IMG/VR virus record: IMGVR_UViG_3300005573_000120
Coordinates: 1 to 52,569 of that record
Strand: one strand, 5' to 3'
DNA length: 52,569 nt
Source of the DNA: a virus
Lineage: Duplodnaviria > Caudoviricetes
A program made the translations under genes and the position numbers. Below are positions 1-41,966 of the stretch, in pieces (the first letter of the stretch is position 1; the number at the start of each line of letters is the position of its first letter). The notes below the pieces were generated by a model that saw nothing but the letters and a program-made list of their open reading frames with translations, ran no database searches and had not been told where the DNA came from.

Positions 1-1
1 T

Positions 2-359: not shown

Positions 360-470
360 TTTAAAATTGGAAGATAGAGATTTGAATGCATCGGTTAATA
401 TATTAACAGTTGTGGGGATTGGATAATGGTCTGGTCGGGAAAGCAAGAACTTCCAAAAAGGGGGACCCTG
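351..470 (+). repeat. Internally deleted copy of tnpB 3' end / omegaRNA-like region
   Basis: Matches 7480..7660 (gatttaaaattggaagatagagatt...tgaatgcatcggttaatatatta...atggtctggtcgg..aagcaagaac) with two internal deletions. Confidence 0.85.
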
Positions 471-1118
471 GAAGAAGAGTATTATGATGTTAAGTTGGCA
501 GAGTTAGATGATGCAATTTCCGAAATGGTAAAGGAAAAAAATAGAGCGATTGCTTTGATAGAAAGTGGCAAGGTGGATTTAGAGGGGTGTCCAGAGGGAC
601 AAATTCTAATTGAGGGGATTGGGGTTGAAAATTGGGAGGATTTATCTATGGAGGAAAAGATTGCAGAGGTTGCAGTTTTTTATGATGAAAGAGTAAGAGA
701 GTTGGAAACTGACTACGATAAATTGGTGAAAGAGAGGGAGAAGGAGTTAAAAAGGACAAGAATAAAGGAATACAAGGAAGCTCTAATAAATGATGCTGTT
801 GATGTTGTTAAAAAAGTTTTAGATGATTTGGGAATTGGTTATGAGATTAAAAAATCTCAACATAGCGAGAGTGTATATATCTATGTGGGCGATGTTTCAG
901 AAGAGTATATGGAATTTGACAAAAGTTACTATGTAAAATCTGGGGAAGGTGTGATTATAAGAATTTCTACTCATGAAAGAAGTCCTTTGTATGAAGGATT
1001 GCATCCATTAGATTTGAATTATGTGATAGATGATGAATTTGATGGCGACGAATTTGAGGAGAAACTGGTAACTGATTTGAATGAGTTGTTAAGCGAGATT
1101 GAAGAAGAGGAGGAATAA
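426..1118 (+). CDS. Acidic hypothetical protein (coiled coil plus C-terminal SxSxY...IRISTH domain); N-terminus derived from the tnpB remnant
   Basis: ORF track; begins MVWSGKQEL like 7620 (MVWSVKQEL). Confidence 0.7.
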   Translation: MVWSGKQELPKRGTLEEEYYDVKLAELDDAISEMVKEKNRAIALIESGKVDLEGCPEGQILIEGIGVENWEDLSMEEKIAEVAVFYDERVRELETDYDKLVKEREKELKRTRIKEYKEALINDAVDVVKKVLDDLGIGYEIKKSQHSESVYIYVGDVSEEYMEFDKSYYVKSGEGVIIRISTHERSPLYEGLHPLDLNYVIDDEFDGDEFEEKLVTDLNELLSEIEEEEE

Positions 1119-3053: not shown

Positions 3054-4217
3054 ATGATGCAGTATATAGGTAAAGAATTTCGTTTAGACCTTATTGGAAG
3101 GGATAAGATTTTGTCTTATTTTTCTGGTTTTGATTTATCTGGTTTTATCACTGATTTTAAAGTGTTGCAGTATCGTATGTTAGATAATAGTAAGGGAGTG
3201 GTGACTTATAGTATAAAGTTGAGAGGTTATACTGGTGGTAATGTTGATATTGAGATACCAGTTATGTTTGATATAGAGGTTGGTGAAGTTCAGCGTCCTG
3301 TGATAGGTTATATAAATGGTAATGTTATTTTGTTGAGTGAGGGTGTTTTAAATAGTTTATTAGATAGTTTTAATCTTAAAAGAAAATTTTATCCTGGGTG
3401 GATTTCTTTTAATTATGCTATTAGTGATAAAGATTATAATATTTATAATGATTGGAATAAGTATAGGGTAGCTTCTTTAGAGGATTTAGAGGATAATGAT
3501 TTAATGTCAGCTTTAAATGGTTATTTTTTATGTCTTGGTGCTAGTAAGGATACTTTATTGAATGTTATTAGAGATAGGGCTAGTTATCTTTGTAGGGATG
3601 GGGTTTCTTATGATGATGCAAGTGTGTATATGGTTGGTTCTTATTTAGGTGGGAATGTTGATTTTTTTGATATTAAAAAGGTTGTGAATGATGTTTATAA
3701 TTTTTCTAAAAGGTATGCGCAGGGTGAATTAGAGATACCAGAGTATTATGAGAGGATAGAGTTTCCAGAGATTGCTGATTTATTAGATGTTATTAAGTTA
3801 TATCATGTAATTAGGTTTGCTTATAGAAAATTAAATGGTGAATATACTACTCGGGTTGTTGAACCTCACTATTTATGGTATACCAATAAGGGGAATGTGA
3901 TTTTGATAGGTTGGGATTATTCAAGAGGGGATTGGAGGGCTTTTGATTTGAATCGTATTAGGGATGTGGATGTTATGTATTTAGGGGATTGGATAGAGTT
4001 AGGAAAATTTTTAGCAATGGTTCAGTCTTATGGTAAAGTTCCTGATGATTATAGGGATGTTTTTAAGCCTCGTGGTCCTTATCATGATTTTGTAGTGAAT
4101 GTTAGGGGTAGTTTAAATAATTTGAGGGATAGGACTAAGCCTGTTTTATCTATTATGATAGATAAAATTGGGAAAGTAATTGATGAGAGAATAAAGAAGG
4201 ATTTGTGTGATGGCTGA
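3054..4217 (+). CDS. Protein with C-terminal WYL domain
   Basis: IRFAYRKLNGEYTTRVVEPHYLW...LIGWDYSRGDWRAFDLNRI is the WYL-domain pattern. Confidence 0.8.
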   Translation: MMQYIGKEFRLDLIGRDKILSYFSGFDLSGFITDFKVLQYRMLDNSKGVVTYSIKLRGYTGGNVDIEIPVMFDIEVGEVQRPVIGYINGNVILLSEGVLNSLLDSFNLKRKFYPGWISFNYAISDKDYNIYNDWNKYRVASLEDLEDNDLMSALNGYFLCLGASKDTLLNVIRDRASYLCRDGVSYDDASVYMVGSYLGGNVDFFDIKKVVNDVYNFSKRYAQGELEIPEYYERIEFPEIADLLDVIKLYHVIRFAYRKLNGEYTTRVVEPHYLWYTNKGNVILIGWDYSRGDWRAFDLNRIRDVDVMYLGDWIELGKFLAMVQSYGKVPDDYRDVFKPRGPYHDFVVNVRGSLNNLRDRTKPVLSIMIDKIGKVIDERIKKDLCDG

Positions 4218-5538
4218 TAAAAGAAAAATATTAGTAGTTGATACTGGGTTAGCTTTGGATGTTGTGAGGAAATTAGCACAGGAAGGGAATGAGGTTTATT
4301 ATTTTGAGAATTGGATTAAGGCTCATCCTGAGCAGGAGGACTTATCTTATGGTGAAGGTTTGTTTGAGGAATGGGGTGTTAATAGGGTTGACAATTTTTG
4401 GCATTTGGTTGATGATGTTGATATGGTGTTATTTACGGATATAGGTTGGGGAGATGATATAGATTTTCTTCGTAGGGAGGGTTGTGTTGTTTTTGGTGCT
4501 GGTAAAGAGGGTGAGGAATTGGAGAATGATAGGGTTTTTGCGAAGTCTATTTGTAAGGAGTGTGGGTTAGATGTTCCTGAAACTTATAGTATGAACCCAG
4601 ATGAGGCTATAGATTTTGTAAATAATGAGGATAGGGAGTTTGTTTTGAAGTTTTCAAAGGTGAGAACTGATTTATTATCTACTTATTTGCCAGTTTGTAA
4701 AGAGGATTGTTTATGGTATTTAAATAAAGTGAAAGAGTTAGATTCTAATGTTGAGGTTATTTTAGAGGAGAGGATAGAGGGTGTGGAGTGTGCTATTTCT
4801 GGATTTTTTAATGGTTATGAGTTTGTGGAGCCTTATTTGATAAATTTTGAGCATAAGAAGCTTATGGATGGTGAAGTTGGTCCGAATACTGGTGAGATGG
4901 GCAATTGTGCGATTTATACTTATAATTCTGATTTGCCTTTTGTTAAGTATTTTAATAATTTATCTGGTTATTTAAAGGATATAGGTTATAGGGGTATAAT
5001 AGATATAGATTGTATGTGTAATGAGGATGGTTTTTATGTTTTGGAATTTACTTGTAGATTTGGTTATCCTATGATTATGATTCAGAGCGTTTTGCATAAG
5101 GATAATTTAGGTGATATATTATTTGGGGTAGCAACTGGAGAGATAGATAGATTTGAAGCTTATGATAATTTATGGGTGGTTGGAGTTTGTCTAAATATAG
5201 CTGGTTATCCTTTTGATGATGTTGTTAAGAAGTCTGGGTTTGTAAAGATATTTGGTTTAGAAGAGGCGTTAGAGAATGGTTATAAGATAGGTTTTCAGGC
5301 GTTGTGTAAGAAGGAAGATGGCTATTATTCTGTGCCTGGTCATGGGAGGGTTTTAGTTATAAATGGGACTGGTGATGATATATCGTCTGCAAGAGGTAAT
5401 GCTTATGGAGCTTTAGATTATATAGGTTTTTCAGATATGATGTATAGATTAGACATAGGTTTAAAAGTAGAGAAAAGGTTAGATAACTTAGTAGAATGGG
5501 GAGTGATAGATGATAAAAAAAGCGGAATTAAGTATTGA
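4207..5538 (+). CDS. PurD (phosphoribosylamine-glycine ligase)-like ATP-grasp ligase
   Basis: LENDRVFAK, ILEERIEGVE, EHKKLMDGEVGPNTGEMG, LEFTCRFGYP, GRVL, YRLDIG motifs. Confidence 0.85.
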   Translation: MMADKRKILVVDTGLALDVVRKLAQEGNEVYYFENWIKAHPEQEDLSYGEGLFEEWGVNRVDNFWHLVDDVDMVLFTDIGWGDDIDFLRREGCVVFGAGKEGEELENDRVFAKSICKECGLDVPETYSMNPDEAIDFVNNEDREFVLKFSKVRTDLLSTYLPVCKEDCLWYLNKVKELDSNVEVILEERIEGVECAISGFFNGYEFVEPYLINFEHKKLMDGEVGPNTGEMGNCAIYTYNSDLPFVKYFNNLSGYLKDIGYRGIIDIDCMCNEDGFYVLEFTCRFGYPMIMIQSVLHKDNLGDILFGVATGEIDRFEAYDNLWVVGVCLNIAGYPFDDVVKKSGFVKIFGLEEALENGYKIGFQALCKKEDGYYSVPGHGRVLVINGTGDDISSARGNAYGALDYIGFSDMMYRLDIGLKVEKRLDNLVEWGVIDDKKSGIKY

Positions 5539-5824: not shown

Positions 5825-5843
5825 AAAAGGAGGTTAATGCTAT

Positions 5844-6472: not shown

Positions 6473-6486
6473 GAAAGAGATAAAAT

Positions 6487-7635
6487 ATGGAACTAATAAG
6501 AGCATATAAGTATAGGTTATATCCTACTAAGAAACAGCTAAGACTATTAGAATATAATTTATACTTATGTCAACAATTGTATAATTTAGCATTAGAGCAG
6601 AGGATAAGAGCTTATAGAATGAATGATAAGAAGAGCTTGAGTTATTATGACCAGTGCTATGAATTACCGAATTTTAAGAAGGAATATCCAGAATTTAATC
6701 AGGTGCATAGTCAAGTTTTATGTGATGTTTTACATAGAGTAGATAGGTCATTTCAGAACTTTTTTGATAGACTTAAAGAAAAAGGTAAGAAAGCTGGATT
6801 TCCGAGATTTAGGTCTTTGAATAGGTATAAGAGTTTCACTTATCCTCAATATATGAGTATTAGGATTGAGAATAAAAGAGTTAGATTACCTAAGATAGGA
6901 TGTATTAAAATAAAGTTAACAAGAGATATAGAAGGTAAGATTAAGACCTGTATGGTTAAGAGAGAAGTAGATAGGTGGTATATAATTTTTACTGCCATAA
7001 AAGAGGTGGAAATTAAGAAAAGGGAAAGAGATAGAGAGGTAGGTATAGATGTAGGGTTAAAGAATTTTATTACTTTAAGTAATGGAATTAAGATAGAAAA
7101 TCCGAGATATTTACAAAAATCAGAGGAGAAATTGAAGATAAGGCATAGAAAGTTGTCAAGGAAGATTAAGGGTTCAAAGAATAGGAATAAAGCTGTAATG
7201 ATATTGGCTAAAACTTATAGAAAAATAAGGGATCAGAGAGAGGATTTCTTGCATAAATTAAGCAGGAATATTGTTGATAACTATGATAAGATATATGTAG
7301 AAGATTTAAATATAGATGGTATGACTAAGAATCATAAATTATCAAAAGGTATATATGATGCTTCTTGGATTGATTTTCTTTCTAAGTTAGAATACAAAGC
7401 GGAAGAGGCTGGTGTTCCGATTAGAAAGATACCTATGTTTTGTCCGAGTTCAAAGAGATGTTCTGTATGTGGATATATAAATGTAGATTTAAAATTGGAA
7501 GATAGAGATTGGATATGTCCTGAATGTAAGAGTATGTTAGATAGGGATTTGAATGCATCGGTTAATATATTATTAGTAGGTAGAGGAGCTACCGAATCTA
7601 CGCTTGTGGAGATTGGGCAATGGTCTGGTCGGTGA
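6487..7635 (+). CDS. tnpB: IS200/IS605-family RNA-guided endonuclease TnpB (no tnpA nearby)
   Basis: AYKYRLYPT N-terminus, GFPRF, RuvC-I GIDVG, RuvC-II VEDL, CSVCG/CPEC zinc finger, RuvC-III DRDLNASVNI; D-E-D triad intact. Confidence 0.95.
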   Translation: MELIRAYKYRLYPTKKQLRLLEYNLYLCQQLYNLALEQRIRAYRMNDKKSLSYYDQCYELPNFKKEYPEFNQVHSQVLCDVLHRVDRSFQNFFDRLKEKGKKAGFPRFRSLNRYKSFTYPQYMSIRIENKRVRLPKIGCIKIKLTRDIEGKIKTCMVKREVDRWYIIFTAIKEVEIKKRERDREVGIDVGLKNFITLSNGIKIENPRYLQKSEEKLKIRHRKLSRKIKGSKNRNKAVMILAKTYRKIRDQREDFLHKLSRNIVDNYDKIYVEDLNIDGMTKNHKLSKGIYDASWIDFLSKLEYKAEEAGVPIRKIPMFCPSSKRCSVCGYINVDLKLEDRDWICPECKSMLDRDLNASVNILLVGRGATESTLVEIGQWSGR

Positions 7636-7670
7636 AGCAAGAACTCTCAAATGGGAGACTCCGAAAGGAG
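7568..7670 (+). ncRNA. Predicted TnpB omegaRNA (reRNA) scaffold and guide region
   Basis: Overlaps tnpB 3' end as known for TnpB; stems ggtag/ctacc, cttg/caag, ctctc/gggag, ctcc-gaaa-ggag; boundaries approximate. Confidence 0.65.
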
Positions 7671-8030: not shown

Positions 8031-8043
8031 TTAGTTTTAAAAG

Positions 8044-8445
8044 GTGGATAAAGTGGACAAGGATATGAACTATTATCTTGATCTTCCTTGGGAGATTAAA
8101 CTTAAAAGAATCCCAGAAGAAAGAGGAGGTGGTTGGGTAGCTTCAATACCCGTGCTAGGTGAATATCGGTGTCTGGGTGACGGAAAAACAAAAAAAGAAG
8201 CGTTAAAAAATTTAGACCGAATGTTAAAGAATGTGATAAAAGAAAGTATTGAGGCAGGATTAGAAATTCCCGAACCGACGGAAGAGGAAGATAAGGAAGA
8301 AGAATATAGTGGTAGAATTTTGCTCAGAATCCCTAGCTTCCTTCATTTTCTTCTGGCTAAACAGGCGGAAAAAAATGGGATGAGCCTGAATAGTTATTTA
8401 ATTCATCTTCTCTTCTTGAATTATCTGATTGATAAAATTGAGTGA
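8044..8445 (+). CDS. hicB: HicB-family antitoxin (orphan)
   Basis: GGWVASIPVL...GDGKTKKEALKNL...GLEIPEP domain plus RHH YSGRILLRIPSFLH...AEKNGMSLN. Confidence 0.88.
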   Translation: MDKVDKDMNYYLDLPWEIKLKRIPEERGGGWVASIPVLGEYRCLGDGKTKKEALKNLDRMLKNVIKESIEAGLEIPEPTEEEDKEEEYSGRILLRIPSFLHFLLAKQAEKNGMSLNSYLIHLLFLNYLIDKIE

Positions 8446-8489
8446 GAATTTTTTTAGATTTAAATTTTTAGATAGATAAGGATGTAGCG

Positions 8490-9737: not shown

Positions 9738-9757
9738 GAAGGAGGAAGAAAAAGGAA

Positions 9758-17014: not shown

Positions 17015-18361
17015 ATGAGGGAAGAAATGGTAAAAAATATATTAGTTTTGGGCTCTGGGTTGGATTTGAGTATAGCTTTGGAGTTTTGTAAGAAGGCTGT
17101 TAAGGTTTATTATTATTCTTCGTGGTCTGAGGGTTTTCCACAGTTAGATAAGTATCTTGTAGGGTATGGTTTTGAGAGGTTTGGTTTAGAGATAGTAAAG
17201 GATTTTTATAGGCAATTGAGGTGTATTTGGGATATAGATAAGGAGGATTGGTTGGTTGTATTTACTGATAATAATTTTGGTGATTTGCCTGATATGTTGA
17301 GGGATGAGGGTTTTATTGTTTTTGGTTCTGGTTTAGGGGGGTCTTCATTGGAGTTGGATAGGGCTTGGGGTAAGTCTGTTTTATCTGAGTTTGTGGATGT
17401 TCCAGATTTTAAGAGTTTTCATAATTTGAATGAGGTTGAGGATTATTTAAGGGGTGAGGATGGTTCTGAGAGGTTTGTATTAAAGGTTGATGTGGTATCT
17501 GGTAGTATAGATACGGTTGTTGGGACTGTAGATGAGTTATTATCTGAGATAGATAGGGTAGATGATGTTGAGAGGGGATTGGAGTTGAATTGGATTTTAG
17601 AGAGATTTATAGATGGTGTAGAGGTGGCTATTGGGGCTTTTTTTAATGGTAATAAGTTTTTATTTCCTGTTGTAAGGTCTTTTGAGAGTGAATGGGGTGG
17701 GTATTTGATTTGGGGCAGTAAGGATATTATTTTTGAGGAGACTTTAGGAAAGATGGTATCGTTTTTATCTGGTTTGGGGTATAATGGTATGGTTGATATA
17801 AATGGTATATTATCAAATGATGGTAAGTTTTATGCTTTGGAATGGACTGCTGGTAGGTTTGGGTATCCTTGGGGAAGGATTTATACAAGAATGATAAATA
17901 ATATAGTTGATGTCCTTGATAGTATAGCTAGGGGTAAGGATTGTGATATAGATATATCTTATAATTGTGCTTATTTTATATCTGCTTTTTCTGATTTTGA
18001 CTTTTCAAAAATGCCAGAAAATTTTTATGATTGCAATGATTTATATAAGCTGGATAAAGAGGATGATAAGGGTATAGTATATGATAGGGTGATGATTAGT
18101 GAGGATGTCCTGTATTCTCTACCAGGGTATAATCGTATGTTTCAGATAGTAGGTTTTGGGAACGATTTTGATTCCGCTTTTAAAAATGCCAAAGAGATGT
18201 TCAGTAAATGTAAGATGATGTGTGATTTCAAAAATAAATTTGATGAATTATATAAGGATTTAAATAAAAGGTTAAATTTATTAGATAATATATTAAAAAA
18301 TAAAGAAAAATTAGAGGATACTAATGATGGGGATAGAATACCAGCCAATAATAGTAAATAA
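17015..18361 (+). CDS. Divergent PurD-like ATP-grasp protein (paralogue of 4207)
   Basis: LELDRAWGK, ILERFIDGVEVAIGAFFNG, LEWTAGRFGYP; lacks the HKK...GPNTGxMG loop. Confidence 0.75.
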   Translation: MREEMVKNILVLGSGLDLSIALEFCKKAVKVYYYSSWSEGFPQLDKYLVGYGFERFGLEIVKDFYRQLRCIWDIDKEDWLVVFTDNNFGDLPDMLRDEGFIVFGSGLGGSSLELDRAWGKSVLSEFVDVPDFKSFHNLNEVEDYLRGEDGSERFVLKVDVVSGSIDTVVGTVDELLSEIDRVDDVERGLELNWILERFIDGVEVAIGAFFNGNKFLFPVVRSFESEWGGYLIWGSKDIIFEETLGKMVSFLSGLGYNGMVDINGILSNDGKFYALEWTAGRFGYPWGRIYTRMINNIVDVLDSIARGKDCDIDISYNCAYFISAFSDFDFSKMPENFYDCNDLYKLDKEDDKGIVYDRVMISEDVLYSLPGYNRMFQIVGFGNDFDSAFKNAKEMFSKCKMMCDFKNKFDELYKDLNKRLNLLDNILKNKEKLEDTNDGDRIPANNSK

Positions 18362-24646: not shown

Positions 24647-25159
24647 ATGGGAACTTGTTTTATTAGAGTTGATCCTGTATTTGATTTAGATAGTTTTGTT
24701 TTAGAGGTGGGTTATGAAGAAGGAGATGTGATTATAGAAGATGCTCTTAAATATCTTAAGGAACTTATTACAGATAGTTTTGAAAAGAAGGGATTAGATA
24801 CAAGTATTATACCAGAAGATCTTGGTGATTTTGAGGAATGGGTTACATCTGTTTCAGATAGTCTTGATAAATATCTTACTTATTATATTGATTCTGCTGT
24901 AAGTGATAATCCATCTGAGGCTATTTTGTTAGGTTGGTGGGATATTTATGAAGAGGAGATATATAAAGAAATGGAGAGTGTTATTGATAGGATTGTTGAA
25001 AGGAGTAGAACTTTAGATGATCTTGTTAGTGGATTAAGAGATACCCCTGAATTTGCTGATGCAAGAATTGTATATGATTATAGTTATGATGATGCAGAAT
25101 ATGAAGCTAAGCAAATTGTTAAAGATGTGATAGGATATTGGAAGGAAAGAATGAAATAA
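24647..25159 (+). CDS. Acidic ~170-aa paralogue family protein
   Basis: ALKYLKE...GLDTSIIPEDLGDFEEWV. Confidence 0.8.
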   Translation: MGTCFIRVDPVFDLDSFVLEVGYEEGDVIIEDALKYLKELITDSFEKKGLDTSIIPEDLGDFEEWVTSVSDSLDKYLTYYIDSAVSDNPSEAILLGWWDIYEEEIYKEMESVIDRIVERSRTLDDLVSGLRDTPEFADARIVYDYSYDDAEYEAKQIVKDVIGYWKERMK

Positions 25160-25167
25160 AGGGAAAA

Positions 25168-25548
25168 ATGAAGATTAAGATTAAGTATAATTCTATTAAA
25201 CCTGTGGATAATTTTGGTTTAGAGTTTGGGTGTCAAGATAACAGGAATATTCGTGCTTGTGCTCTTCTTAGCCTTAAAAATTATATTGTAGATAGCTTTA
25301 AGGATAAGGCAATTGCTATTCCAGATAATTTTAATGATTTTGAAGTATGGGTTAATAATATTAACAAAGTTATTGAAAGGAGTAAAGATTTATATGAATT
25401 TATTGAATGGATGGGGGATGTTTATGGAGTTGATAGTGCAAAAATTATAGATAATCCTTCTTCTCCGAATGTAGACCAGTTTGCTAAAAAGGTTGTCAAA
25501 AAAGTGAGGCATAAAGGTTTAAAGAATAAGGAGATAAGGAAAAGATGA
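25168..25548 (+). CDS. Internally deleted member of the acidic paralogue family
   Basis: ALLSLKNYI...IPDNFNDFEVWV joined directly to the C-terminal part; start taken at ATG 25168 (ORF track 25138). Confidence 0.6.
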   Translation: MKIKIKYNSIKPVDNFGLEFGCQDNRNIRACALLSLKNYIVDSFKDKAIAIPDNFNDFEVWVNNINKVIERSKDLYEFIEWMGDVYGVDSAKIIDNPSSPNVDQFAKKVVKKVRHKGLKNKEIRKR

Positions 25549-27344
25549 AGCGTAAAGGTTTAAAATTGAAGGGTTCTTCAAGGAGTAAGGGTTCTTCTCT
25601 TGAAGATTTTGATTCTTCTATTTTGAATTTAAGGTCTTCAAGGAGTTTTATAGCTGAGGAGGTATCTAATTTTTATAGGGATATGTATGGTTTAGATGAA
25701 GAAGGTAAGGGTTCTGGTATGAAAAAGGAGGCACAGTTTTTTGGTGGGGTAGGTCCTGTTGGTAGCGGGGCTCCAGTTACGATAACTGTTCCTCAGCCTT
25801 ATATTCCAGAGTTAGCTACTCCTGATAGGTTATTTTTTCCGACTAAGCCTAAGGAGGCTATGAAGTATTGGCGTTATTTTTATGCTTTGGATCCTGTTTG
25901 TGGGAATGTATTGGATATGTATGGTGAGGTGACAAGTTCTGATATAACTTTATCTGGTTTTGAGATAGCTGGGGATGATTTGAGTGCTGAGATAAGGGAT
26001 ACTTGCTATGAGGCGTTAAAGGATACGAATGCAGTAGGTCAATTTAAATGGATGGTGATAGGGTATTTGGTGGATGGTGAGGTTATTCCTCATTTAGTTT
26101 GGGATAATGATTTGCATAGATGGGTTTATTTAGGTTTTCAGGATCCGATGAATGTGAATGTGGTGGATGTTCCTTTTGTTCGTGGTCTGCCTTATTTAGA
26201 GTTAGAGATTAGTGATTCTATTCGTAATATATTTAGGAATCCTGACCCAATTTATGAAAGGTTTAGGAAGCAAGTTCCTAATGAGTTTTTGGATTTGATT
26301 TTGCAGGGTAGGAATATACCCTTGAAGACGGATGAGAATGTGACATTTATTCCTAGAAGGCTGACGCCTTATGATATTAGGGGTATATCTATTTTTGCTC
26401 GTATTTGGCGTGTTTTGATTTATGAGGATGCAATTATGAATGCATCCATTCAGACGGCGAGGAGGCATGCAGCACCAGTAAAGGTGGTTAAATTAGGTGA
26501 TCCGTCTAGGGGTTGGATTCCAGGTCCAGAGCAGGAGGATAAGATAAAGAGATTGCTTGCAATAGCTGAGACTGATCCTCATGCGTGGTTGGTGACTCAT
26601 TTTGGTGTTTCTTTTGAGGCTTGGGGGACGACAGATAGGGTGATGAGTATATCTCGTGAATGGGATACGATAGAGAGGATAAAATTGATAGCTTTGGGTG
26701 TAAGTAGAGCTTTCTTGCACGGAGAAGTCACATATTCGTCGGCTGAGAAGGGTTTGCAGATATTTTTGAGTAGATTAAAGGGGTTGAGGACTTTTTTTGA
26801 GCAGGTTTGGTGGTATCCAAGGTTTTTTGGGATAATGTCTCAGAAGAATGAATGGGTTGCTCCTACGAGGGCAGAGCTTTCGCATAATGTAAGGGTTAGG
26901 AGGAGTAAGAAGGAATTATTAGAGGATGGTCGTTATATTATTCCTCGTATAGTTTGGGAGGAGAATTTAGAGCCTCAGGATAGATCGGAGTTGATTCGGA
27001 TTTATACTGATTTAGTTGAGAGGCTTGGTATAAAGATAAGTCGTGGGACTGTTTTAGCTAATTTAGGGTTGGATTTTGAAGAGGAGGAGAAGAATTGGAG
27101 GGAGGAGCAGAAGGTGATAGAGGATTTGGATAAGGAGTATGGTAAGAAAGAGACTGTTCCAGGGCAATCTCCTATGGGAGTTCCTATGGGAGTTCCTATG
27201 GATTTGGGTATTCCAGAGGTAAGTCCTGCTGGTGTTGGAGTTCCAATGGGTGGGGAGGTTCCTGCTGAAAGTCCTGAAACAGGTATAGGTGAAGAAATGG
27301 GTGAGGTAAGCGAAGAAAGTTTGGAAGGTATTGGAAATAAGTAA
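25545..27344 (+). CDS. Portal protein
   Basis: Size and position between TerL and protease; RYFYALDP, RGISIF, LGVSRAFL-type portal features; acidic Pro/Gly tail with PMGV repeats. Confidence 0.8.
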   Translation: MKRKGLKLKGSSRSKGSSLEDFDSSILNLRSSRSFIAEEVSNFYRDMYGLDEEGKGSGMKKEAQFFGGVGPVGSGAPVTITVPQPYIPELATPDRLFFPTKPKEAMKYWRYFYALDPVCGNVLDMYGEVTSSDITLSGFEIAGDDLSAEIRDTCYEALKDTNAVGQFKWMVIGYLVDGEVIPHLVWDNDLHRWVYLGFQDPMNVNVVDVPFVRGLPYLELEISDSIRNIFRNPDPIYERFRKQVPNEFLDLILQGRNIPLKTDENVTFIPRRLTPYDIRGISIFARIWRVLIYEDAIMNASIQTARRHAAPVKVVKLGDPSRGWIPGPEQEDKIKRLLAIAETDPHAWLVTHFGVSFEAWGTTDRVMSISREWDTIERIKLIALGVSRAFLHGEVTYSSAEKGLQIFLSRLKGLRTFFEQVWWYPRFFGIMSQKNEWVAPTRAELSHNVRVRRSKKELLEDGRYIIPRIVWEENLEPQDRSELIRIYTDLVERLGIKISRGTVLANLGLDFEEEEKNWREEQKVIEDLDKEYGKKETVPGQSPMGVPMGVPMDLGIPEVSPAGVGVPMGGEVPAESPETGIGEEMGEVSEESLEGIGNK

Positions 27345-27369: not shown

Positions 27370-28596
27370 ATGAAAAGAAATTTTAAAGTAGCAAGGTTAA
27401 TAGAGGATGTGAGGGATTTGTCTTCTATTGCTTCTACTGATGTTATGGGTAGGCTTGATATATCTAAGGCTATAGAGTTGGTAGCCGATAGGTATAGTAT
27501 ATCTAAAAATCCTGATGATTATTGTTATTTAGTGGTGGTGGCTTTATGTGCTGATAAGCCTAATGATAATGGGGATGCCTTTCCTTTGGCGGAGTTAGAG
27601 AGGTTTGAGCCTCGTTATGGTTGTAAGGTTTATCAGACTTTTGTATTGAAGCCTCATTTTATAGAGCATAAGCAGGATGGTGATGTTTATGGATTTGTAT
27701 TGGATGCTCATTTAGAGAAGCCAAAGGATGATAATGCTTATGTGGAGTTGGTATTGGCGGTGGATACGAAGAAGGATCCTGTTTATGGTGGTTTAGTTAA
27801 GGCGGGTAAGGTGAATGCCTTTTCAATGGGTTGTTCTGTGGATTATACGGTTTGTAATGTATGTGGTCATAAGGCTTATGTTGAGGCTGAATTTTGTGAG
27901 CATATAAAGAGTGGTAAGATGAAGACCTTTAAGGTAGCTGGTTCTAATGAGGAGAAGTTGGCTTTTGAATGGTTATATGGTATATGTTTTGATGAGATTT
28001 CTGCAGTTTCTGATCCAGCGGAGGAAAAGGCATTGTTAGAGGAAAAATTAGCAAGTAAGGTAGAGAATATAAAAGTTAGATTAGGGGTATTGAAACAGAA
28101 GTATAGGGAAGATACAGGTCGTAAGGAGTGGTGTTTGGTATCAAAGGATGGTGATAAGGTTTTGAAGTGGTTTGGTCCTGAAAAACCTTCTGAGGAGGAG
28201 GTGGCTAAAGAGGAGAGAAGGGTGCAGTATTTTAAGCATAAGGGTGGTAAGAGGGTATTATCTCAATCAAGTCAAGACAAGGAGAAGGGATGGTTAATAA
28301 ATTTGTCTAAAGATATATCGGAAGGGAAGGTTTCCGATGAGACTAAGGCGCAAGAGTGGTTTCGTGAGAGATATAAGAGGGAGCCTGATCCTGGTGAGAT
28401 GGAGAATATGAGGTCTTTGTTTAGCCGTAAAAGGATTAGGCAGAGATGGTATAAATTATTGAAAAAAGGCAATAATTTAGTAGAGATAGGGTGTAGGGAG
28501 ATAGAAGATGATACAGATAGTATTATAACAGGATGTAGAGATATAGAGGATAAGGCAGATGATATTGTGATAGGAGTAAAAAATTTAGTAGAATAG
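27370..28596 (+). CDS. Prohead (capsid maturation) protease with C-terminal extension
   Basis: NDNGDAF, HFIEH, FSMG, CNVCG..CEH, EISAV; follows portal. Confidence 0.75.
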   Translation: MKRNFKVARLIEDVRDLSSIASTDVMGRLDISKAIELVADRYSISKNPDDYCYLVVVALCADKPNDNGDAFPLAELERFEPRYGCKVYQTFVLKPHFIEHKQDGDVYGFVLDAHLEKPKDDNAYVELVLAVDTKKDPVYGGLVKAGKVNAFSMGCSVDYTVCNVCGHKAYVEAEFCEHIKSGKMKTFKVAGSNEEKLAFEWLYGICFDEISAVSDPAEEKALLEEKLASKVENIKVRLGVLKQKYREDTGRKEWCLVSKDGDKVLKWFGPEKPSEEEVAKEERRVQYFKHKGGKRVLSQSSQDKEKGWLINLSKDISEGKVSDETKAQEWFRERYKREPDPGEMENMRSLFSRKRIRQRWYKLLKKGNNLVEIGCREIEDDTDSIITGCRDIEDKADDIVIGVKNLVE

Positions 28597-28625
28597 TGAT
28601 TTTTTTAAGGTTTTTGTTTAAATTA

Positions 28626-28673
28626 TGTTATGATATATTGCAACAGGGACTAAGTAATTGAAGATCTTTGAAA
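28626..28673 (+). promoter_or_regulatory. Extended -10 (TGtTATGAT) followed by boxA-like gatctttgaaa
   Basis: Intergenic; boxA-like word recurs at 34063 as gctctttgaaa. Confidence 0.45.
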
Positions 28674-28675
28674 TT

Positions 28676-28770
28676 TATTATTAGTAGGTAGAGGAGATAC
28701 CGAATTTACACTTGTGGAGACTATAAATTGGTCAATGAAGCAAGAACTCTCAAAAAAGGGAGATTCCAAA
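28676..28770 (+). ncRNA. Stand-alone copy of omegaRNA-like scaffold
   Basis: tattattagtaggtagaggag.taccgaat.tac.cttgtggaga...ggtc..tgaagcaagaactctcaaa..gggaga.tcc matches 7568..7662 with no tnpB ORF attached. Confidence 0.6.
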
Positions 28771-28794
28771 AGAAAGAGGAAGGAATAAGAAAAA

Positions 28795-29331
28795 ATGAGA
28801 AATCCTGCTAAAATTAAGGTTAGTCCTAAGCTTGGTGATCCTTATGGTATTTTTAGTTTTATAGTGGAATGTGATGCGGTGGGAAGGGAGCTTTATGAGG
28901 GTGCTTTTGTATATCTTCAGGATTATATTAAAGGTAGATTTGAGGATGAGGGATTAGATACAAGTGTTATACCAGAAGATATTGATGATTTTGATTTATG
29001 GGTTAGAAGTATTTGTGGCACTGAGACGGTTGGTGCATTTATTGTTACTTATGAGGATTCTGCTTTAGGTGAATTTCCAGAGTTTTATTATGTTTCTCAT
29101 ACATGGTATTCTGCGTATTTGGGTAGGAATTTAGATAAAAAAACGGAGAAAATTATTGAGGAGATTCTTGATAAGTCTCTTACTTTAGAGGATGTTATTA
29201 AAGGATTAGAACATGTTTACGGATATGGTAGTGCAAAAATTATATATGATTTTACTTATAAAAATGCGGATTATTTTGCCGAAGATATGTTTAAACATAT
29301 AGTTAGATATTTAGAATATAATAAAAAATGA
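28795..29331 (+). CDS. Acidic ~170-aa paralogue family protein
   Basis: AFVYLQDYI...GLDTSVIPEDIDDFDLWV. Confidence 0.8.
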   Translation: MRNPAKIKVSPKLGDPYGIFSFIVECDAVGRELYEGAFVYLQDYIKGRFEDEGLDTSVIPEDIDDFDLWVRSICGTETVGAFIVTYEDSALGEFPEFYYVSHTWYSAYLGRNLDKKTEKIIEEILDKSLTLEDVIKGLEHVYGYGSAKIIYDFTYKNADYFAEDMFKHIVRYLEYNKK

Positions 29332-29346
29332 AGAGATAAGGGAAAA

Positions 29347-29880
29347 ATGAGAGACAGCGTTTCAATTATAATTATTCCTTCATCTGAACTTGGTTTAGAT
29401 GAATTTGAATTATTAACTGAAATAATGGGGTCGGATAAGGTTTTTGAAGAAGCTTATGAAGAAGCTTATGAAGTTCTGAAGGATTATATTGAAGATAATC
29501 TTATTGAAAGAGGATTAGATACGACTATTGTGCCAGATGATCTAAATGATTTTAAGGTATGGATTCAAAGTATCTCTGATTGGGTTGATGATTATATTGA
29601 GTATTACGCTGGTTTTGCTGTGTTTGAAGCTGAAAAAAATTTAATGCCAATAGGCTATAAGATTGTAGAAGGGCAAGTAGATAGAAAAACAGAGGAGGCT
29701 ATTGAAGAGATTTTTCGGAAGAATGTATATTTTGAAGAAGTTCTTGCAGGGTTAAAAGAGTTTTTTGGGCTTAACATTACAATAGATAAATATGATTATT
29801 GTTATAACGAATCATATGTTACTGCTGTCTTGATTCTTGAAGATGTGATTAGATATTTAGAGGATCGTGAAAAAAAATAA
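29347..29880 (+). CDS. Acidic ~170-aa paralogue family protein
   Basis: LIERGLDTTIVPDDLNDFKVW. Confidence 0.8.
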   Translation: MRDSVSIIIIPSSELGLDEFELLTEIMGSDKVFEEAYEEAYEVLKDYIEDNLIERGLDTTIVPDDLNDFKVWIQSISDWVDDYIEYYAGFAVFEAEKNLMPIGYKIVEGQVDRKTEEAIEEIFRKNVYFEEVLAGLKEFFGLNITIDKYDYCYNESYVTAVLILEDVIRYLEDREKK

Positions 29881-29894
29881 GGAGGTAATGAAGG

Positions 29895-30434
29895 ATGAGA
29901 TTCTTTACTACAATTACAATTATTCCTTTTTGGCATGAATTTAACTTAAGAGAATTTGAATTATTATTTGAGGTATCGGGGTCAGATAGGCTTTTTGAAG
30001 AAGCTTATAAAGATCTTCAGGATTTTATTAAAAGTAGTCTTATTGAAAGAGGATTAGATACGACTATTGTGCCAGATGATCTAAATGAATTTAAGGTATG
30101 GGTTGAGGGCATTTCTGATTGGATCGTTGATTATATTGAGTATTATACTGATTATGCTGTATTTGATACCCAAAAAGATTTTATGCCATTAGGCCTTGAG
30201 ATTTCAAAAGGGCAAGTAGATAAAAAAACAAAGGAAGCTATTAAAGAGATTTTTCGGAAGAATGTATATTTGGAAGAAGTTGTTGCAGGATTAAAAGAGT
30301 ATTTTGGACCTAATTCTACTATAAAAAAAGATCGCTATGATTATAATAGGATAGAAGCATGGCGAAGTGCTGATGAGATTGTTAAAGATGTGATTAACCT
30401 TTTTTATATAACAGAGTATAGAAAAAAAGAATAA
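29895..30434 (+). CDS. Acidic ~170-aa paralogue family protein (recent duplicate of 29347)
   Basis: LIERGLDTTIVPDDLNEFKVW; long near-identical nucleotide blocks shared with 29347. Confidence 0.8.
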   Translation: MRFFTTITIIPFWHEFNLREFELLFEVSGSDRLFEEAYKDLQDFIKSSLIERGLDTTIVPDDLNEFKVWVEGISDWIVDYIEYYTDYAVFDTQKDFMPLGLEISKGQVDKKTKEAIKEIFRKNVYLEEVVAGLKEYFGPNSTIKKDRYDYNRIEAWRSADEIVKDVINLFYITEYRKKE

Positions 30435-33013: not shown

Positions 33014-34057
33014 ATGAGAAATCCATATAAAGAATATGCTGAAAAAAAGACTGGAAAGATTTGGGAGGAATTGGATAAAGATTTTGATAGAAAAGGTGAA
33101 TTAAATGCTTGGGATAAGAAAGATGCAGGGACGAAGATAGCTAGTATTTTAGATAAAGTAGCAGGGACGAGACCTCAGCTAATAAAAGAGAAGGCTTTAG
33201 ATGAATCAACTAAGCGTCGTATTTTAGCTTCAATTTCTGCTAATCCTGAAAAGGGTATGAGTGTTGTGGCTCAGGTGATGGGTGATGCAGTTTATAAGAT
33301 TGTGGATTATGCTGGATGGGCAAGAAAAATTTTCAATGTAAAAACTATAGCTCAGGGAGATGTTTTTAGGGTTCCAAAAGATGTTGATGTAGCTGGTTGG
33401 GTGGTAGCAGGTGATGGTCAGACTTTAGTTAGTCAGGTAAGAACTAAATATGTATTTCCTGGTGAGTTTAAGATTACAGCATTTACAGAGATTGATATTC
33501 AGGATGTGGTTCAGGCGAATTGGGATATTTTTGCTCGTGGAATTGATAGGTCTGCTCAACAGATAATGAGGAATGAGGATGTTCGTGCAGTAGCACTATT
33601 AACTAATGCTTCTCGGACTGTGAATGATACTGTTACCTATGCTACTTTGTCTTTGGGTGTATTTGAAGATATTAGGTATCAGGTAGAGAGATGGAGATTG
33701 ACAGTGGATAAATTTATTATTTCTCGTAGTGAACTTTCAGATATAGTTAAGACTATGAGTGGTCAGGTGGATTTTGTTACTCAGCGTGAATTGATTTTAG
33801 CTGGTTATATTGGTAATGTATTGAATGCTCAGATTATTACTAGTGCTGGTATAGGGGTTGAGGAGGTTGTTCCTGCTGGTGTAGTATTTGCGGTGACTGA
33901 GGGGAACTATTTAGGACAGCTTGGTGAGAGGTTGGCTTTGGTAAGTGAGGAGTATAGCGCAGTGGTTAGGAATGAGTTGAAGAGAGGTGTCGCTCAGTAT
34001 GAGATTATTGGTATTGGTATTGGTAATAGCAGAGCGGTTGCGATGGGGACTAAGTGA
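33014..34057 (+). CDS. Major capsid protein (HK97 fold predicted)
   Basis: 347 aa in canonical position; YAGWARKIF...I.RNED...YEIIGIGIGNSRAVA pattern. Confidence 0.85.
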   Translation: MRNPYKEYAEKKTGKIWEELDKDFDRKGELNAWDKKDAGTKIASILDKVAGTRPQLIKEKALDESTKRRILASISANPEKGMSVVAQVMGDAVYKIVDYAGWARKIFNVKTIAQGDVFRVPKDVDVAGWVVAGDGQTLVSQVRTKYVFPGEFKITAFTEIDIQDVVQANWDIFARGIDRSAQQIMRNEDVRAVALLTNASRTVNDTVTYATLSLGVFEDIRYQVERWRLTVDKFIISRSELSDIVKTMSGQVDFVTQRELILAGYIGNVLNAQIITSAGIGVEEVVPAGVVFAVTEGNYLGQLGERLALVSEEYSAVVRNELKRGVAQYEIIGIGIGNSRAVAMGTK

Positions 34058-34150
34058 TTAAAGCTCTTTGAAATTTATTATTAGTAGGTAGGGGAGCTAC
34101 CGAATTTTTGACCTGTTGATATTATATCAGCAGAGGTGGGTGAAATTCCC
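34046..34150 (+). ncRNA. Structured leader: boxA-like word, omegaRNA 5' stem, then two different hairpins
   Basis: 34046..34107 is 57/62 identical to 28646..28707; then ctgttgata/tatcagcag stem and gggtgaaattccc. Confidence 0.5.
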
Positions 34151-34174
34151 TGAAGTTTTAGGAAGGGGATTTAA

Positions 34175-35077
34175 ATGGGGGCAAAGGATAAAGATGGTAA
34201 GGTTGTAATGGTTGTGGATAAAAATGGGTCTTGTCTTGATTTGACAAGACCAGCTAAAGTTAGAAAGTTGATAGCTTCAGATAGAGCAGTTTTGATAAGT
34301 TCTCAGCCTCCAATAATAAAATTAAAAAAATCTGTAAGGAGGATCAAGATGGATATTAGAAAAATTAACGAGTATTTTGACAAGAATCGTGAGGTTTTTG
34401 TTCAGAACATTTCTGGAGGTGTTGTTTCTTTATCTTTTTATCATCCTGATGGTCGTATAGAGCCTTTTTCTTTGCCTAATGATAGGCGTCCTATTTGTTT
34501 GACTAATTGGATTACGAAGGATTTAATAAGGAATAGTGTTGATTTTCGTAGGTTGCTGATGAGGAAGCCACCTGCTATCAGGTTGTTATCGGAAAATGAG
34601 TATTCTGAGTTGATACATAAGGTAGCTAGGGAAACTGGTAAATCTGTTGTGGATGTTGAGTCTGATATAGCGGAGAAGATTACTAATAGAGGAGGTTATG
34701 TTGTTCCTTCTTCTGGTGAGGATTTAGGATTGAAAGTAGAGCCTCCACCAAGTTCTATGGCTGCTGAATTATCTGCTAAGGCTGAGGTTGCTCCTAAGTC
34801 TGATGAGGTTGTTCCTAAGTCTGATGAGGTTGTTCCTAAAAAAGCGGATATAGATGTTCCTGGGATAGCTGATGTGGGTATAAATCCTCGTGTTTTACAG
34901 ATAGTGGCTAATTGTTCTGAAAGCGCAGAGAATAGGATAAAGGCTCAGGATGCTATTGCAGAGTTAGCCTTATTGAATTTAACTGATATAGATTTGAATT
35001 ATATTATAGGTAATTGTGCCTATAAGACGGTTAGGGCTTGGGCTCAGAAAAAGCTTTCAGAGGTGAATAAAAAATGA
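34175..35077 (+). CDS. Head-region protein with N-terminal PLMP/RRXRR-like (IscB-type) domain; second start at 34349
   Basis: VMVVDKNGSCLDLTRPAKVRKLIASDRAVLISSQPPIIKL resembles the IscB PLMP consensus; aaggagg SD before in-frame ATG 34349. Confidence 0.7.
   Translation: MGAKDKDGKVVMVVDKNGSCLDLTRPAKVRKLIASDRAVLISSQPPIIKLKKSVRRIKMDIRKINEYFDKNREVFVQNISGGVVSLSFYHPDGRIEPFSLPNDRRPICLTNWITKDLIRNSVDFRRLLMRKPPAIRLLSENEYSELIHKVARETGKSVVDVESDIAEKITNRGGYVVPSSGEDLGLKVEPPPSSMAAELSAKAEVAPKSDEVVPKSDEVVPKKADIDVPGIADVGINPRVLQIVANCSESAENRIKAQDAIAELALLNLTDIDLNYIIGNCAYKTVRAWAQKKLSEVNKK
34783..34839 (+). repeat. 21-bp coding tandem repeat (EVVPKSD) about 2.7 copies
   Basis: tgaggttg[c/t]tcctaagtctga units. Confidence 0.85.
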
Positions 35078-39884: not shown

Positions 39885-39900
39885 GATATTTTGTTTATTA

Positions 39901-39911
39901 TGTGTTATAAT
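39901..39911 (+). promoter_or_regulatory. Extended -10 promoter (TGTGtTATAAT) for tail operon
   Basis: Perfect consensus about 40 bp upstream of sheath ATG. Confidence 0.55.
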
Positions 39912-39950
39912 CTATGATAGTATAAATACTTTGAAAGGGAGGTATAAGAT

Positions 39951-41966
39951 ATGGCATATATTGAACCTGGAACTTATATACAGGAAATCCCTGTACCTAA
40001 AACTGCTATTGGGGCTGCTTTAGGCTTCAATGTTTGTATAGTTGGAGAGGGTATAAAGAATAAGACTATTTATGATGAGGTGGTTATAAGGGGTAAGATT
40101 TATGGGGAGGAGCTGACGGTTTCTGCGGTAAGTCCTCATACAGCTGATTTAGCTAATACTTCAGATATGAAGAAGGATAATACTACTTTGTATAAGGATG
40201 GTGCTATTTTAGGTCCTGATGCTTATGATTTTGAAGATGAGGATACAATTGTTATTTTGGATGCTTATTATTCAAGTGATTCAACCTATAAGATTGATTA
40301 TGTAGCGGTAGATTCTTTTACTGATGCTTTGGATTATACCCCGTTGAGTATTGTAAAGATTGGTAGATATATTGGTTCTGGCAATTATAGGGAGAATATA
40401 GATTTTAAGTTGAATACTGGTGTGATAGATTGGAGTATAATTTCTGGGGCTACTTTTACTGGTTTGAATTCAGCTCCTTTTGATTTATCAACTAATGATA
40501 CGATTAAAATTTCGTTGGATGGTAAATCAGCTATAGAGATAACTATTACTGGGGCAAATCAGAGTCAGGTTACGGCGAGTGAGGTAGCAGAGGATATAAA
40601 TGCTGCTTTGGTTAGTAGTTCTTCTTATGGAGAGGCTTATTCTAATGTAGCTTCTGCGGTTAGTAATAAAGTTAAACTTACTTGTCCTAATTTGGATCCG
40701 TATGCTGGGGTTAATTCTTTTATAAGGCTTTATAAAGCCTCAACGAAGGATGCTTTGGAGATAATTTTTGGTTTGGATGCTGATGATGCTCCTTATGAGT
40801 ATCGTGGAGTTGGTAAGAGACCTTTGCCTGGTCAGACTTATTATGTTAGTTATACTATTACTCGTCCAAGTGATGAGTATAATGTTGTAAAGCAATTTAT
40901 TAGTGATACAGATTTTTATAGGGATATAGGTTATCCAGCGAGTGATAATAAGTTAGCTATAGCTGGTTCAATAGCTTGGAGTAGGGGTATAAATAAGTTA
41001 TTTGTGGTTCAGGTTAAGGATAATGATAATGATGGATATTATTCTGATGAGGATTATCAGTTGGCTTTGGATGCGATTGTAGACCAGAGGGAGATAACAG
41101 AGATTGTTTGTTTGCGTAGTTCTAGTTTAGTTAGGGCTAAGATTTTTGATTTATTACAGCAGGAATGTAGTCTTTTGAAGTCTAATCCGAAGAGGTATTG
41201 GTGTGGTGTTCCTCGTGGGACTGTTATAGGGGATTTAGATACTGGGGATTCTTTGATTTATATAGCGAGGAGGGAATTTAGGGTTAATCCTGATTCTGTA
41301 GCTCGTGGGAGGATTATTTTAGTTGCTCCTCCTGATTGTTCTACATCTATTATACAATCTGATGGTTCAATGGTAGAGGTTTCGTTGGATTCTAATTATT
41401 GTGCGGTTTTGTTAGCTTCTGAGGTTTGTGTTTTTGAAAGGGCAAGTGAGACTTTGTTTGGTAGGAAGTTTAGTGGTATTTCTCTTGATTTTGAATATAC
41501 TCATAGTGAGAAAAAGTATTTAGCTGAAAATGGTGTTTTGGTTTTACAGAGTGATGGTAGTTTGATTTCGGTTTATGATTCTTTGACTACTGATGCTTCT
41601 GGTGATGAGAGGTATGAAGAGGTTAGTTCTTCTGTTCAGAAGGATAGTGTTTTATTTAAGGTGATTTATGTGATAGATACTCAATTGAAGGGTATTGTTC
41701 CAGATAGTATTATAGATTTTATAGGGTTGTTAAAGACTACGGTTGGTGGGGTTTTGTTAGCGGAGATAGAGGATGGTAATATAGGGTATTATACTAATGA
41801 TGATGGTTCAGTTAGGGATATAGATTATTCAAAGGATATTTTAGTATTTTCACAGTATGGTGGAGATAAGAGAAATTATAAGTTTAAGTATTGGTTTAAT
41901 TTGAAATATCCAGCTAAGAGGTTTTTTGGGGAGTATCAGGTAGATATTCCTTTGGGGGTTAAATGA
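39951..41966 (+). CDS. Contractile tail sheath protein
   Basis: MAYIEPGTYIQE N-terminus, YLAENGVLVL, SLTTD, LKYPAKR C-terminus. Confidence 0.88.
   Translation: MAYIEPGTYIQEIPVPKTAIGAALGFNVCIVGEGIKNKTIYDEVVIRGKIYGEELTVSAVSPHTADLANTSDMKKDNTTLYKDGAILGPDAYDFEDEDTIVILDAYYSSDSTYKIDYVAVDSFTDALDYTPLSIVKIGRYIGSGNYRENIDFKLNTGVIDWSIISGATFTGLNSAPFDLSTNDTIKISLDGKSAIEITITGANQSQVTASEVAEDINAALVSSSSYGEAYSNVASAVSNKVKLTCPNLDPYAGVNSFIRLYKASTKDALEIIFGLDADDAPYEYRGVGKRPLPGQTYYVSYTITRPSDEYNVVKQFISDTDFYRDIGYPASDNKLAIAGSIAWSRGINKLFVVQVKDNDNDGYYSDEDYQLALDAIVDQREITEIVCLRSSSLVRAKIFDLLQQECSLLKSNPKRYWCGVPRGTVIGDLDTGDSLIYIARREFRVNPDSVARGRIILVAPPDCSTSIIQSDGSMVEVSLDSNYCAVLLASEVCVFERASETLFGRKFSGISLDFEYTHSEKKYLAENGVLVLQSDGSLISVYDSLTTDASGDERYEEVSSSVQKDSVLFKVIYVIDTQLKGIVPDSIIDFIGLLKTTVGGVLLAEIEDGNIGYYTNDDGSVRDIDYSKDILVFSQYGGDKRNYKFKYWFNLKYPAKRFFGEYQVDIPLGVK

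Follow-up and report, generated by a model that had tools for sequence, protein, structure and literature searches.

What is a guide-RNA scaffold of the TnpB type doing between two structural genes of a phage, with no nuclease gene beside it, and could it still act as a guide RNA there? The question is raised by IMG/VR record IMGVR_UViG_3300005573_000120, a fragment of an uncultured hot-spring phage that was analysed complete, its 52,569 bases being referred to below as the window. The window corresponds to approximately 31% of the genome (CheckV estimate), has a G+C content of 34%, and carries all of its gene-like open reading frames (ORFs) of at least 80 amino acids on the plus strand, according to the ORF list. 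The DNA runs containing it are hot-spring metagenomes, the two main ones being metagenome contig sets. The stretch of interest is the 198-nt intergenic region 28597–28794, which lies inside a head module ordered as large terminase, portal, prohead protease, the intergenic region itself, three acidic paralogues, a 614-residue ORF, an Ig-like protein, the major capsid protein and an RRXRR/PLMP ORF. The genes that frame it are as follows.

19108 to 20982, plus strand: large terminase.
25545 to 27344, plus strand: portal.
27370 to 28596, plus strand: prohead protease, the gene directly upstream of the intergenic region.
28795 to 30434, plus strand: three acidic paralogue genes, members of a blastp family of eight in the window.
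33014 to 34057, plus strand: major capsid protein (PHROG 2522, 2e-44; 46% identity to the capsid gene of Virus Rctr197k).

A single metagenome contig spans 27961–29528 with zero differences to the window, and among the listed contig joints none bypasses the scaffold block, although contigs cannot show that variants are absent.

Scaffolds of omegaRNAs usually sit across the 3′ end of tnpB and just past its stop codon, and the reference for the intergenic copy is therefore the tnpB locus of the window, which lies ∼21 kb away from it.

6487 to 7635, plus strand: intact tnpB of 382 amino acids, the likely effector (Pfam OrfB_IS605 4e-28, Cas12f1-like TNB 5e-20 and HTH_OrfB_IS605; NCBIfam guided_TnpB 1e-94).
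7574 to 7665, plus strand: tnpB-linked scaffold (copy A), overlapping the last 62 nt of tnpB; 103.7 bits.

In an alignment of 20 relatives, the RuvC residues Asp188, Glu272, and Asp354 and the zinc-finger cysteines of this TnpB are invariant or nearly so, and judged from these residues the enzyme is apparently catalytically intact. Its relatives are distributed over many phyla. The homology block shared by the scaffold copies begins 62–72 nt upstream of the tnpB stop codon and extends ∼30 nt beyond it. Just past copy A, at 7663–7745, a unit of ∼24 nt with an RBS and ATG (GGAGGATTAAGAAAAATGATTAAA) was seen by eye in tandem repeat.

A covariance model was built from six copies of the scaffold, four of which come from one phage population: copy A, the intergenic copy (copy B), a decayed copy at 351–471 (copy D), the copy linked to the tnpB of variant strain L206, the tnpB-linked copy of a related phage, and a further copy of that phage without tnpB directly in front of it. 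The related phage is represented by a contig with 72% identity to the window in the capsid protein and 74% in TnpB. Four helices are common to the scaffold copies, namely hairpin 1 (GGTAG/CTACC), stem 2, hairpin 3 nested within stem 2, and hairpin 4, which is followed by ACTCC. Standard pairs occupy 97.9% of 95 cells in the six-copy alignment, as compared with 22–44% when the partners are slid, and double-sided changes occur at four base pairs, with stem 2 for example alternating between CTTGT/GCAAG, CTTGG/CCAAG, and CTTAC/GTAAG. Applied to 80 independent genome loci, the model gives a plus-strand hit where the TnpB match ends in 12 of them (E ≤ 0.01; 44.8 to 21.9 bits), in agreement with nhmmer. 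The scaffold thus occurs where tnpB homologues end and is therefore assigned as the 3′ omegaRNA of this TnpB clade. Among viral contigs, a single-protein TnpB query returned no locus, and the related contig was the sole result of a prohead protease query. Scanning viral contigs for TGAASCAAGAACTYTC gave at least 118 stretches, over which nhmmer recovered only the pattern itself (best E 0.009) and added zero copies.

Alignment of the intergenic region to the tnpB locus bore out the original prediction of a full-length scaffold copy, with 28672–28772 being 80% identical to 7564–7667, the 3′ end of tnpB and the DNA downstream of it. Its 5′ start coincides with the start of homology to the tnpB-linked scaffold, as had been claimed, and the gene directly upstream is the prohead protease and not tnpB, so that the unit does stand without a nuclease gene.

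28682 to 28768, plus strand: gene-less omegaRNA scaffold (copy B), aligned over covariance model positions 1–92 of 92 with 95.8 bits, a score that is partly by construction since copy B is one of the six training rows.
28687 to 28691 paired with 28697 to 28701, plus strand: hairpin 1.
28711 to 28715 paired with 28740 to 28744, plus strand: stem 2.
28719 to 28723 paired with 28729 to 28733, plus strand: hairpin 3.
28747 to 28751 paired with 28758 to 28762, plus strand: hairpin 4.
28763 to 28767, plus strand: tail ATTCC, in place of ACTCC.

Copy B keeps 17 of the 18 modelled base pairs, the sole broken one being the closing pair of hairpin 1 (G·A). Its nearest relative is the L206 tnpB-linked scaffold, with which it is identical in 77 of 89 aligned columns and shares a short hairpin 3. 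The differences between the two that fall in stems comprise one compensatory double change (A-T to G-C), two changes to G·U, and one break. Copy B also has the same 5′ boundary as the copy of the related phage that is not preceded by tnpB, both beginning 11–14 nt before hairpin 1. No Rfam family reaches its gathering score anywhere in the window, the region 28560–28830 yielding chance-level matches only (E 0.9–4.4); no tRNA or tmRNA was found in the window, and blastn of the unit against GenBank phages gave no match. That copy B is a stand-alone omegaRNA scaffold is nearly certain.

The L206 scaffold also bears on whether the phage nuclease could use copy B. The last ∼100 residues of the L206 TnpB are nearly identical to those of the window TnpB, and since this tail is naturally paired with the short-hairpin-3 scaffold of L206, the window TnpB should accept the form found in copy B. 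In the metagenome contig of L206 (minus strand; 91–94% DNA identity), the tnpB 3′ end and scaffold are joined directly to the homologue of ORF 17015..18361, which means either that tnpB occupies another site in the variant strain or that ∼9.3 kb are missing. In the window, ORF 17015..18361 forms a paralogous pair of ∼445 residues with 4207..5538 (32% identity; without family match). Two head-to-tail scaffold copies are located at the end of the related IMG/VR contig (L004 10035–10220, minus strand), separated by a gap of ∼10 nt or less. The second adjoins the RBS of a 229-residue gene that precedes the terminase. The first, truncated where the contig stops, may follow another tnpB and would have the start of the second copy in its guide position.

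Whether copy B could be transcribed depends on what precedes it, and the extended −10 element named in the original prediction, TGTTATGAT, is indeed present at 28626–28634 within a longer motif.

28623 to 28635, plus strand: promoter-like motif TTATGTTATGATA, containing the extended −10 TGTTATGAT; three exact matches in the window.

The bare pattern TGNTATGAT is not enriched in the window (five matches versus 4.26 expected), and the promoter scan lists no −35 hexamer as partner for TGTTATGAT. The 13-nt motif TTATGTTATRWWA has three exact matches, at 20986, 22254, and 28623, versus 0.12 expected, a number attained in none of 100 shuffles. All three sites are intergenic, on the plus strand and upstream of acidic-paralogue genes (starting at 21035, 22297, and 28795). 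This recurrence is suggestive of a promoter without proving one, and shared ancestry with the paralogues is possible. At 20986 and 22254 the RBS lies within ∼20–25 nt of the motif, whereas at 28623 ∼130 nt (28638–28767) intervene. As only this site has such a distance between motif and RBS, the block looks as if it had been inserted into a pre-existing promoter-to-RBS spacer, the scaffold thereby coming to lie in the 5′ UTR. The notion of a purpose-expressed RNA is accordingly not supported in that form, as the same promoter-like motif precedes two other acidic-paralogue genes and the block resembles a spacer insertion, not a dedicated transcription unit. The sequence TTGAAA/TTGACA inside the boxA-like motif described below was considered as a −35 element and rejected, with no −10-like hexamer 16–18 nt away by eye and none listed by the promoter scan. 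A layout resembling the stretch upstream of copy B is found at 39900–39912, where a perfect extended −10 (TGTTATAAT) preceded by TTTTGTTTA lies upstream of ORF 39951..41966.

The three acidic paralogues that had been described downstream of the unit are present at 28795..29331, 29347..29880, and 29895..30434, with pI values of 4.63, 4.11, and 4.74, respectively, and have no Pfam or PHROG match. Between 21000 and 30500 there are eight acidic paralogues of ∼175 residues in two clusters. To these are added a truncated member that is basic (pI 9.45; 25138..25548) and, at window positions 1–106, the tail of a further one. Some metagenome contigs join different paralogues to one another, such as 21015 with 29324 and 24394 with 29138, and these joints could be recombinant variants or assembly chimeras.

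The DNA between the promoter-like motif and the scaffold proved to be a copy of the end of the capsid gene. The original prediction had noted a resemblance to the capsid stop region, and 28638–28707 and 34038–34107 are indeed 89% identical over 70 nt. The block 28638–28767 is thus a chimera composed of a capsid-tail copy, a boxA-like motif, the presence of which had likewise been claimed and is confirmed, and the scaffold.

28638 to 28662, plus strand: copy of the last codons and stop codon of the capsid gene, reading ATGTK and stop (28640–28657) versus AVAMGTK and stop at 34037–34057.
28663 to 28673, plus strand: boxA-like motif GATCTTTGAAA, matching 9 of the 11 positions of the consensus GYTCTTTAANA.
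34038 to 34107, plus strand: source-like capsid-side copy, with the capsid stop region, boxA-like GCTCTTTGAAA, hairpin 1 only (34087–34101) and a T run; 27.9 bits.

The capsid C terminus, A(M/K)G(T/S)K followed by the stop, is conserved in Virus Rctr197k and the related phage and hence native, and copying therefore proceeded from the capsid locus to the site at 28638. In the capsid-side copy, 45 unrelated nt stand in place of stem 2 and hairpin 3, and the T run is flagged as terminator-like by the scan. A stretch of 27 nt across the junction is identical between this copy and copy B, with flanks that are ∼20% different.

Only three sites with the boxA-like motif are present among the sequences searched: 28663–28673, after the capsid stop of the window, and after the capsid stop of the related phage. 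The two matches in the window, versus 0.22 expected, are both copies of one duplicated segment and hence not independent. Measured against the consensus GYTCTTTAANA, given in PMC5725501 for the Nus-factor sites of rRNA operons and suhB and possibly different from that of the phage host, GATCTTTGAAA matches at 9 of 11 positions, and both GCTCTTTGAAA (34063–34073) and GTTCTTTGACA (related phage) at 10 of 11. The motif resembles these sites in being an 11-nt pyrimidine-rich element in an untranslated leader that fits 9–10 of 11 positions; it differs from them in that no copy matches exactly, all three having G for A at position 8 and GATCTTTGAAA also A for Y at position 2. The related phage has no scaffold at its post-capsid boxA-like site. 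Since the motif stands after the capsid stop even in this scaffold-less phage, it belongs to the capsid 3′ region and came to 28663 as a passenger.

This bears directly on the possibility that the RNA is an antiterminated leader, in which the boxA-like motif would recruit host Nus factors so that polymerase reads through an untranslated structured RNA into the paralogue and capsid genes. Its resemblance to the published consensus (PMC5725501) and its placement, ∼25–35 nt after the putative start and ahead of ∼120 nt of untranslated RNA, are in keeping with such a role, as is the situation behind the capsid genes, where the motif lies 2–6 nt after the stop both here and in the phage with 72% capsid identity, although the neighbouring intergenic DNA has diverged, and each time precedes 117–145 nt of untranslated hairpin-rich RNA. 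At 28663, however, its presence needs no selection, the motif having been carried in with the duplicated segment, and it is there that the fit to the consensus is worst. The conservation may also have another cause, in that the pyrimidine-rich motif can pair with nearby purine-rich GGAG runs in minimum-energy folds. Moreover, when a boxA of the GTTCTTTGAAA type was sought as GYTCTTTGANA in one complete bacterial genome (G002), which is not that of the phage host, not one of the 8 16S genes had it in the 2.7 kb upstream. The boxA reading of the intergenic copy is thus weak, and an antiterminated leader is improbable. That diverged phages share the motif behind their capsid genes offers a separate, minor clue to how late genes are transcribed in this uncultured group of thermophilic phages. 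The motif was also considered as part of a transposon left end (LE) or TAM, and this was rejected because the region upstream of the window tnpB is without such a motif and the capsid C terminus is native.

The region following the capsid stop has features of its own. From 34058 to 34174 it comprises the boxA-like motif, hairpin 1 with the T run, a 10-bp hairpin (CTGTTGATAT/ATATCAGCAG), and, ahead of the following ORF, one more hairpin. That ORF (34175..35077) encodes 300 residues, of which 11–56 match the N-terminal RRXRR/PLMP domain of IscB, with no RuvC or HNH match; a homologue with 45% identity follows the capsid gene in the related phage, making it a stable phage gene. The capsid-side copy as an upstream omegaRNA of the IscB type was rejected, because the match to residues 11–56 alone makes the downstream ORF neither IscB nor IsrB.

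If copy B is used as a guide RNA, its guide would be taken from the DNA that follows the scaffold.

28768 to 28794, plus strand: guide position of copy B (16–24 nt after the scaffold), the purine-rich RBS region of the next gene.

For every scaffold copy, the 16 nt beyond its end were compared, at up to two mismatches, with the window and its 7.3-kb extension as well as with the related contig. For copy B no match was found in these sequences beyond its own flank, except an RBS-like low-complexity site at 37139, and the guides of all copies matched only their own flanks and two RBS-like low-complexity sites. In all five full copies with a readable flank (copies A and B, L206, the related-phage tnpB copy and its second tandem copy), the RBS or ATG of the next gene lies within ∼30 nt of the scaffold end.

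This spacing, together with the end of the scaffold being 8–15 nt before the RBS, would also suit a TnpB-dependent switch in cis, where binding of TnpB draws the RBS into the guide channel or cuts the UTR off the mRNA, and translation of the paralogue is tied to the level of TnpB. Processing of its own mRNA into omegaRNA by TnpB is described in PMC10278001. Such abutment is nevertheless expected for any insert tolerated in a tightly packed phage genome, and the related phage, having neither the block nor the paralogues at this place, gives no sign of a conserved regulatory need. The odds of such a switch are accordingly poor. A more elaborate version, in which the boxA-like motif prevents premature termination in the head-module 5′ UTR, TnpB captures or severs the RBS, and the nuclease thereby times or doses the acidic head proteins, is very improbable, as is its wider form, in which promoter-driven and tandem gene-less scaffolds accumulate toward a multi-guide array.

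The fate of other tnpB-derived DNA in the window was considered next to that of copy B.

351 to 471, plus strand: decayed tnpB 3′ remnant with a scaffold lacking hairpin 1 (copy D); 57.3 bits.

Copy D retains tnpB codons (DLKLEDRD and LNASVNIL) and has two internal deletions; its hairpin 4 survives by virtue of a T-A to C-G change. ORF 426..1118, as listed, begins within copy D, and the true start is more likely a later ATG near 484, behind the RBS GGAAGAAGAG. One genome thus shows tnpB-derived DNA in three states: intact, scaffold-only, and decayed. The window, the related phage, and the variant strain each have tnpB at a different location, in the last of them immediately ahead of the 17015..18361 homologue. 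At the site of copy B, the protease of the related phage runs into the homologue of the 614-residue protein, with neither paralogues nor block between them; the two are fused or contiguous in one ORF of 1250 residues (rel_rc 8244–11996, reverse strand). Only 28 nt separate the window tnpB from the preceding gene, no left end being seen there, and a search for the Y1 transposase TnpA (PF01797) gave no match in the 52.6-kb record, which covers ∼31% of the genome. The tnpB-omegaRNA units of the window are modules without transposase or left end and with fast turnover, as expected of selfish elements of the homing type.

The main rival to a working guide RNA arises from this turnover. A tnpB element after the capsid gene may have lost its nuclease gene and its remnant recombined into the present site, to persist as an inert relic, a transcribed spacer with no role at the RNA level. 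Two plainly decayed copies lie in the same window (351–471 and 34082–34107), showing that tnpB-derived DNA decays here, and copy B is possibly a younger relic. Its 5′ part is a capsid-tail fragment without obvious use at this site, its guide is mere flanking DNA of a low-complexity RBS type with its own flank as the only target among the sequences searched, and the differing tnpB sites in the three phages imply that turnover is fast. The broken closing pair of hairpin 1 and the altered tail likewise speak against a working guide RNA, as does the lack of a visible left end at copy B and of TnpA in the record; the covariation, furthermore, is drawn from six sequences, mostly of one population. 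A relic would not, however, be expected to keep every modelled pair in stem 2 and in hairpin 3 despite ∼13% divergence from the nearest tnpB-linked copy, one double change included. Nor does it account readily for a covariance score equal to that of the tnpB-linked copies, albeit with copy B in the training set, or for the identity of the 27-nt junction between two copies with diverged flanks. On balance, an inert relic is somewhat unlikely.

The reading that we favour, with about an even chance (roughly 0.5) of being correct, is that copy B is a stand-alone omegaRNA that is transcribed in the 5′ UTR of the paralogue and that the phage TnpB could employ in trans, with a guide derived from its flank, in the service of maintenance or homing of the element. 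It is preferred because of the homology to the phage's own tnpB scaffold, the covarying and intact helices, the intact tnpB encoded in the same record, the recurrence of the promoter-like motif, and the position on the coding strand of a late region that is entirely plus-stranded, and because the related phage also has a scaffold copy that is not directly preceded by tnpB and adjoins an RBS. In outline, a TnpB element would have lost its nuclease gene, leaving the right-end guide-RNA scaffold as copy B. The capsid-tail fragment and the boxA-like motif would be passengers, copied along with the scaffold, the donor site lying immediately behind the capsid gene. From its place in the 5′ UTR of the first acidic paralogue, between the recurrent promoter-like motif and the RBS, the scaffold would be transcribed with the paralogue mRNA and then bound and trimmed by the TnpB encoded at 6487..7635, to give a complex whose guide, the 16–20 nt after the scaffold, would be flanking phage DNA. 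A selfish effect is likely, as in other TnpB elements, in that co-infecting relatives with an uninterrupted site would be cut and the insert copied in by repair.

Stand-alone omegaRNAs that work in trans beside effector loci were described for the OMEGA systems (TnpB/IscB) by Altae-Tran et al. 2021, as summarised in PMC10691335. Copy B is like these in that an effector-less scaffold and an effector locus are present in one genome, the guide would come from the DNA adjoining the scaffold end, and action would be in trans. It is unlike them in being virus-borne, with no transposon left end seen and no transposase in the record, in being fused on its 5′ side to a capsid-tail fragment and embedded in the 5′ UTR of a structural gene, and in being known here from sequence. 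The PATEs of Geobacillus stearothermophilus (Meers et al. preprint), as presented in PMC10055086, often encode omegaRNAs requiring TnpB in trans. These minimal IS200/IS605 elements and copy B have in common that they are protein-less tnpB derivatives that keep the right end (RE) and omegaRNA and depend on TnpB from elsewhere; PATEs, however, keep the LE and RE needed for TnpA, whereas the 5′ flank of copy B is capsid-gene DNA without LE and TnpA was not found in the record.

For the tnpB-only (IS1341-type) IS200/IS605 elements, a role as RNA-guided homing nucleases is put forward in 10.1101/2023.11.20.567912 and PMC10055086. The family described here resembles them, with a scaffold that overlaps the tnpB 3′ end and runs past the stop, as at the 3′ ends of tnpB homologues in the 12 loci above, and copy B departs from them by lacking the nuclease gene. 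Solo vrRNAs of VIPR on phages and satellites (bioRxiv 10.64898/2026.10.15.759431) and phage sgRNAs without an adjacent effector (10.64898/2026.06.01.729453) are likewise guide RNAs carried by mobile elements with no effector gene adjoining; their RNA and protein families are unrelated to those of copy B, and their guides have targets in rivals or decoys, none of which was found for copy B. As both trans-usable stand-alone omegaRNAs and PATE-borne omegaRNAs are already published, copy B adds one more case. What is unusual about it is the chimeric block carrying a capsid-tail fragment and the coincidence of its 5′ boundary with that of the related-phage copy not preceded by tnpB.

If copy B is active, the phage TnpB has more than one guide, and gene-less scaffolds could spread among co-infecting phages as minimal homing elements that borrow a nuclease. 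Activity would also bear on the persistence of TnpB in viruses without transposase and on the origin of multi-guide systems from single omegaRNAs. The case of copy B shows, in addition, that the scaffold is movable as a chimera with fragments of host genes.

Insertions of other kinds may also be present in the head module of the related contig, where the portal homologue (rel_rc 3637–8172, reverse strand) is an ORF of 1511 residues with portal similarity in three separated pieces, a split that could reflect inteins or other inserts.
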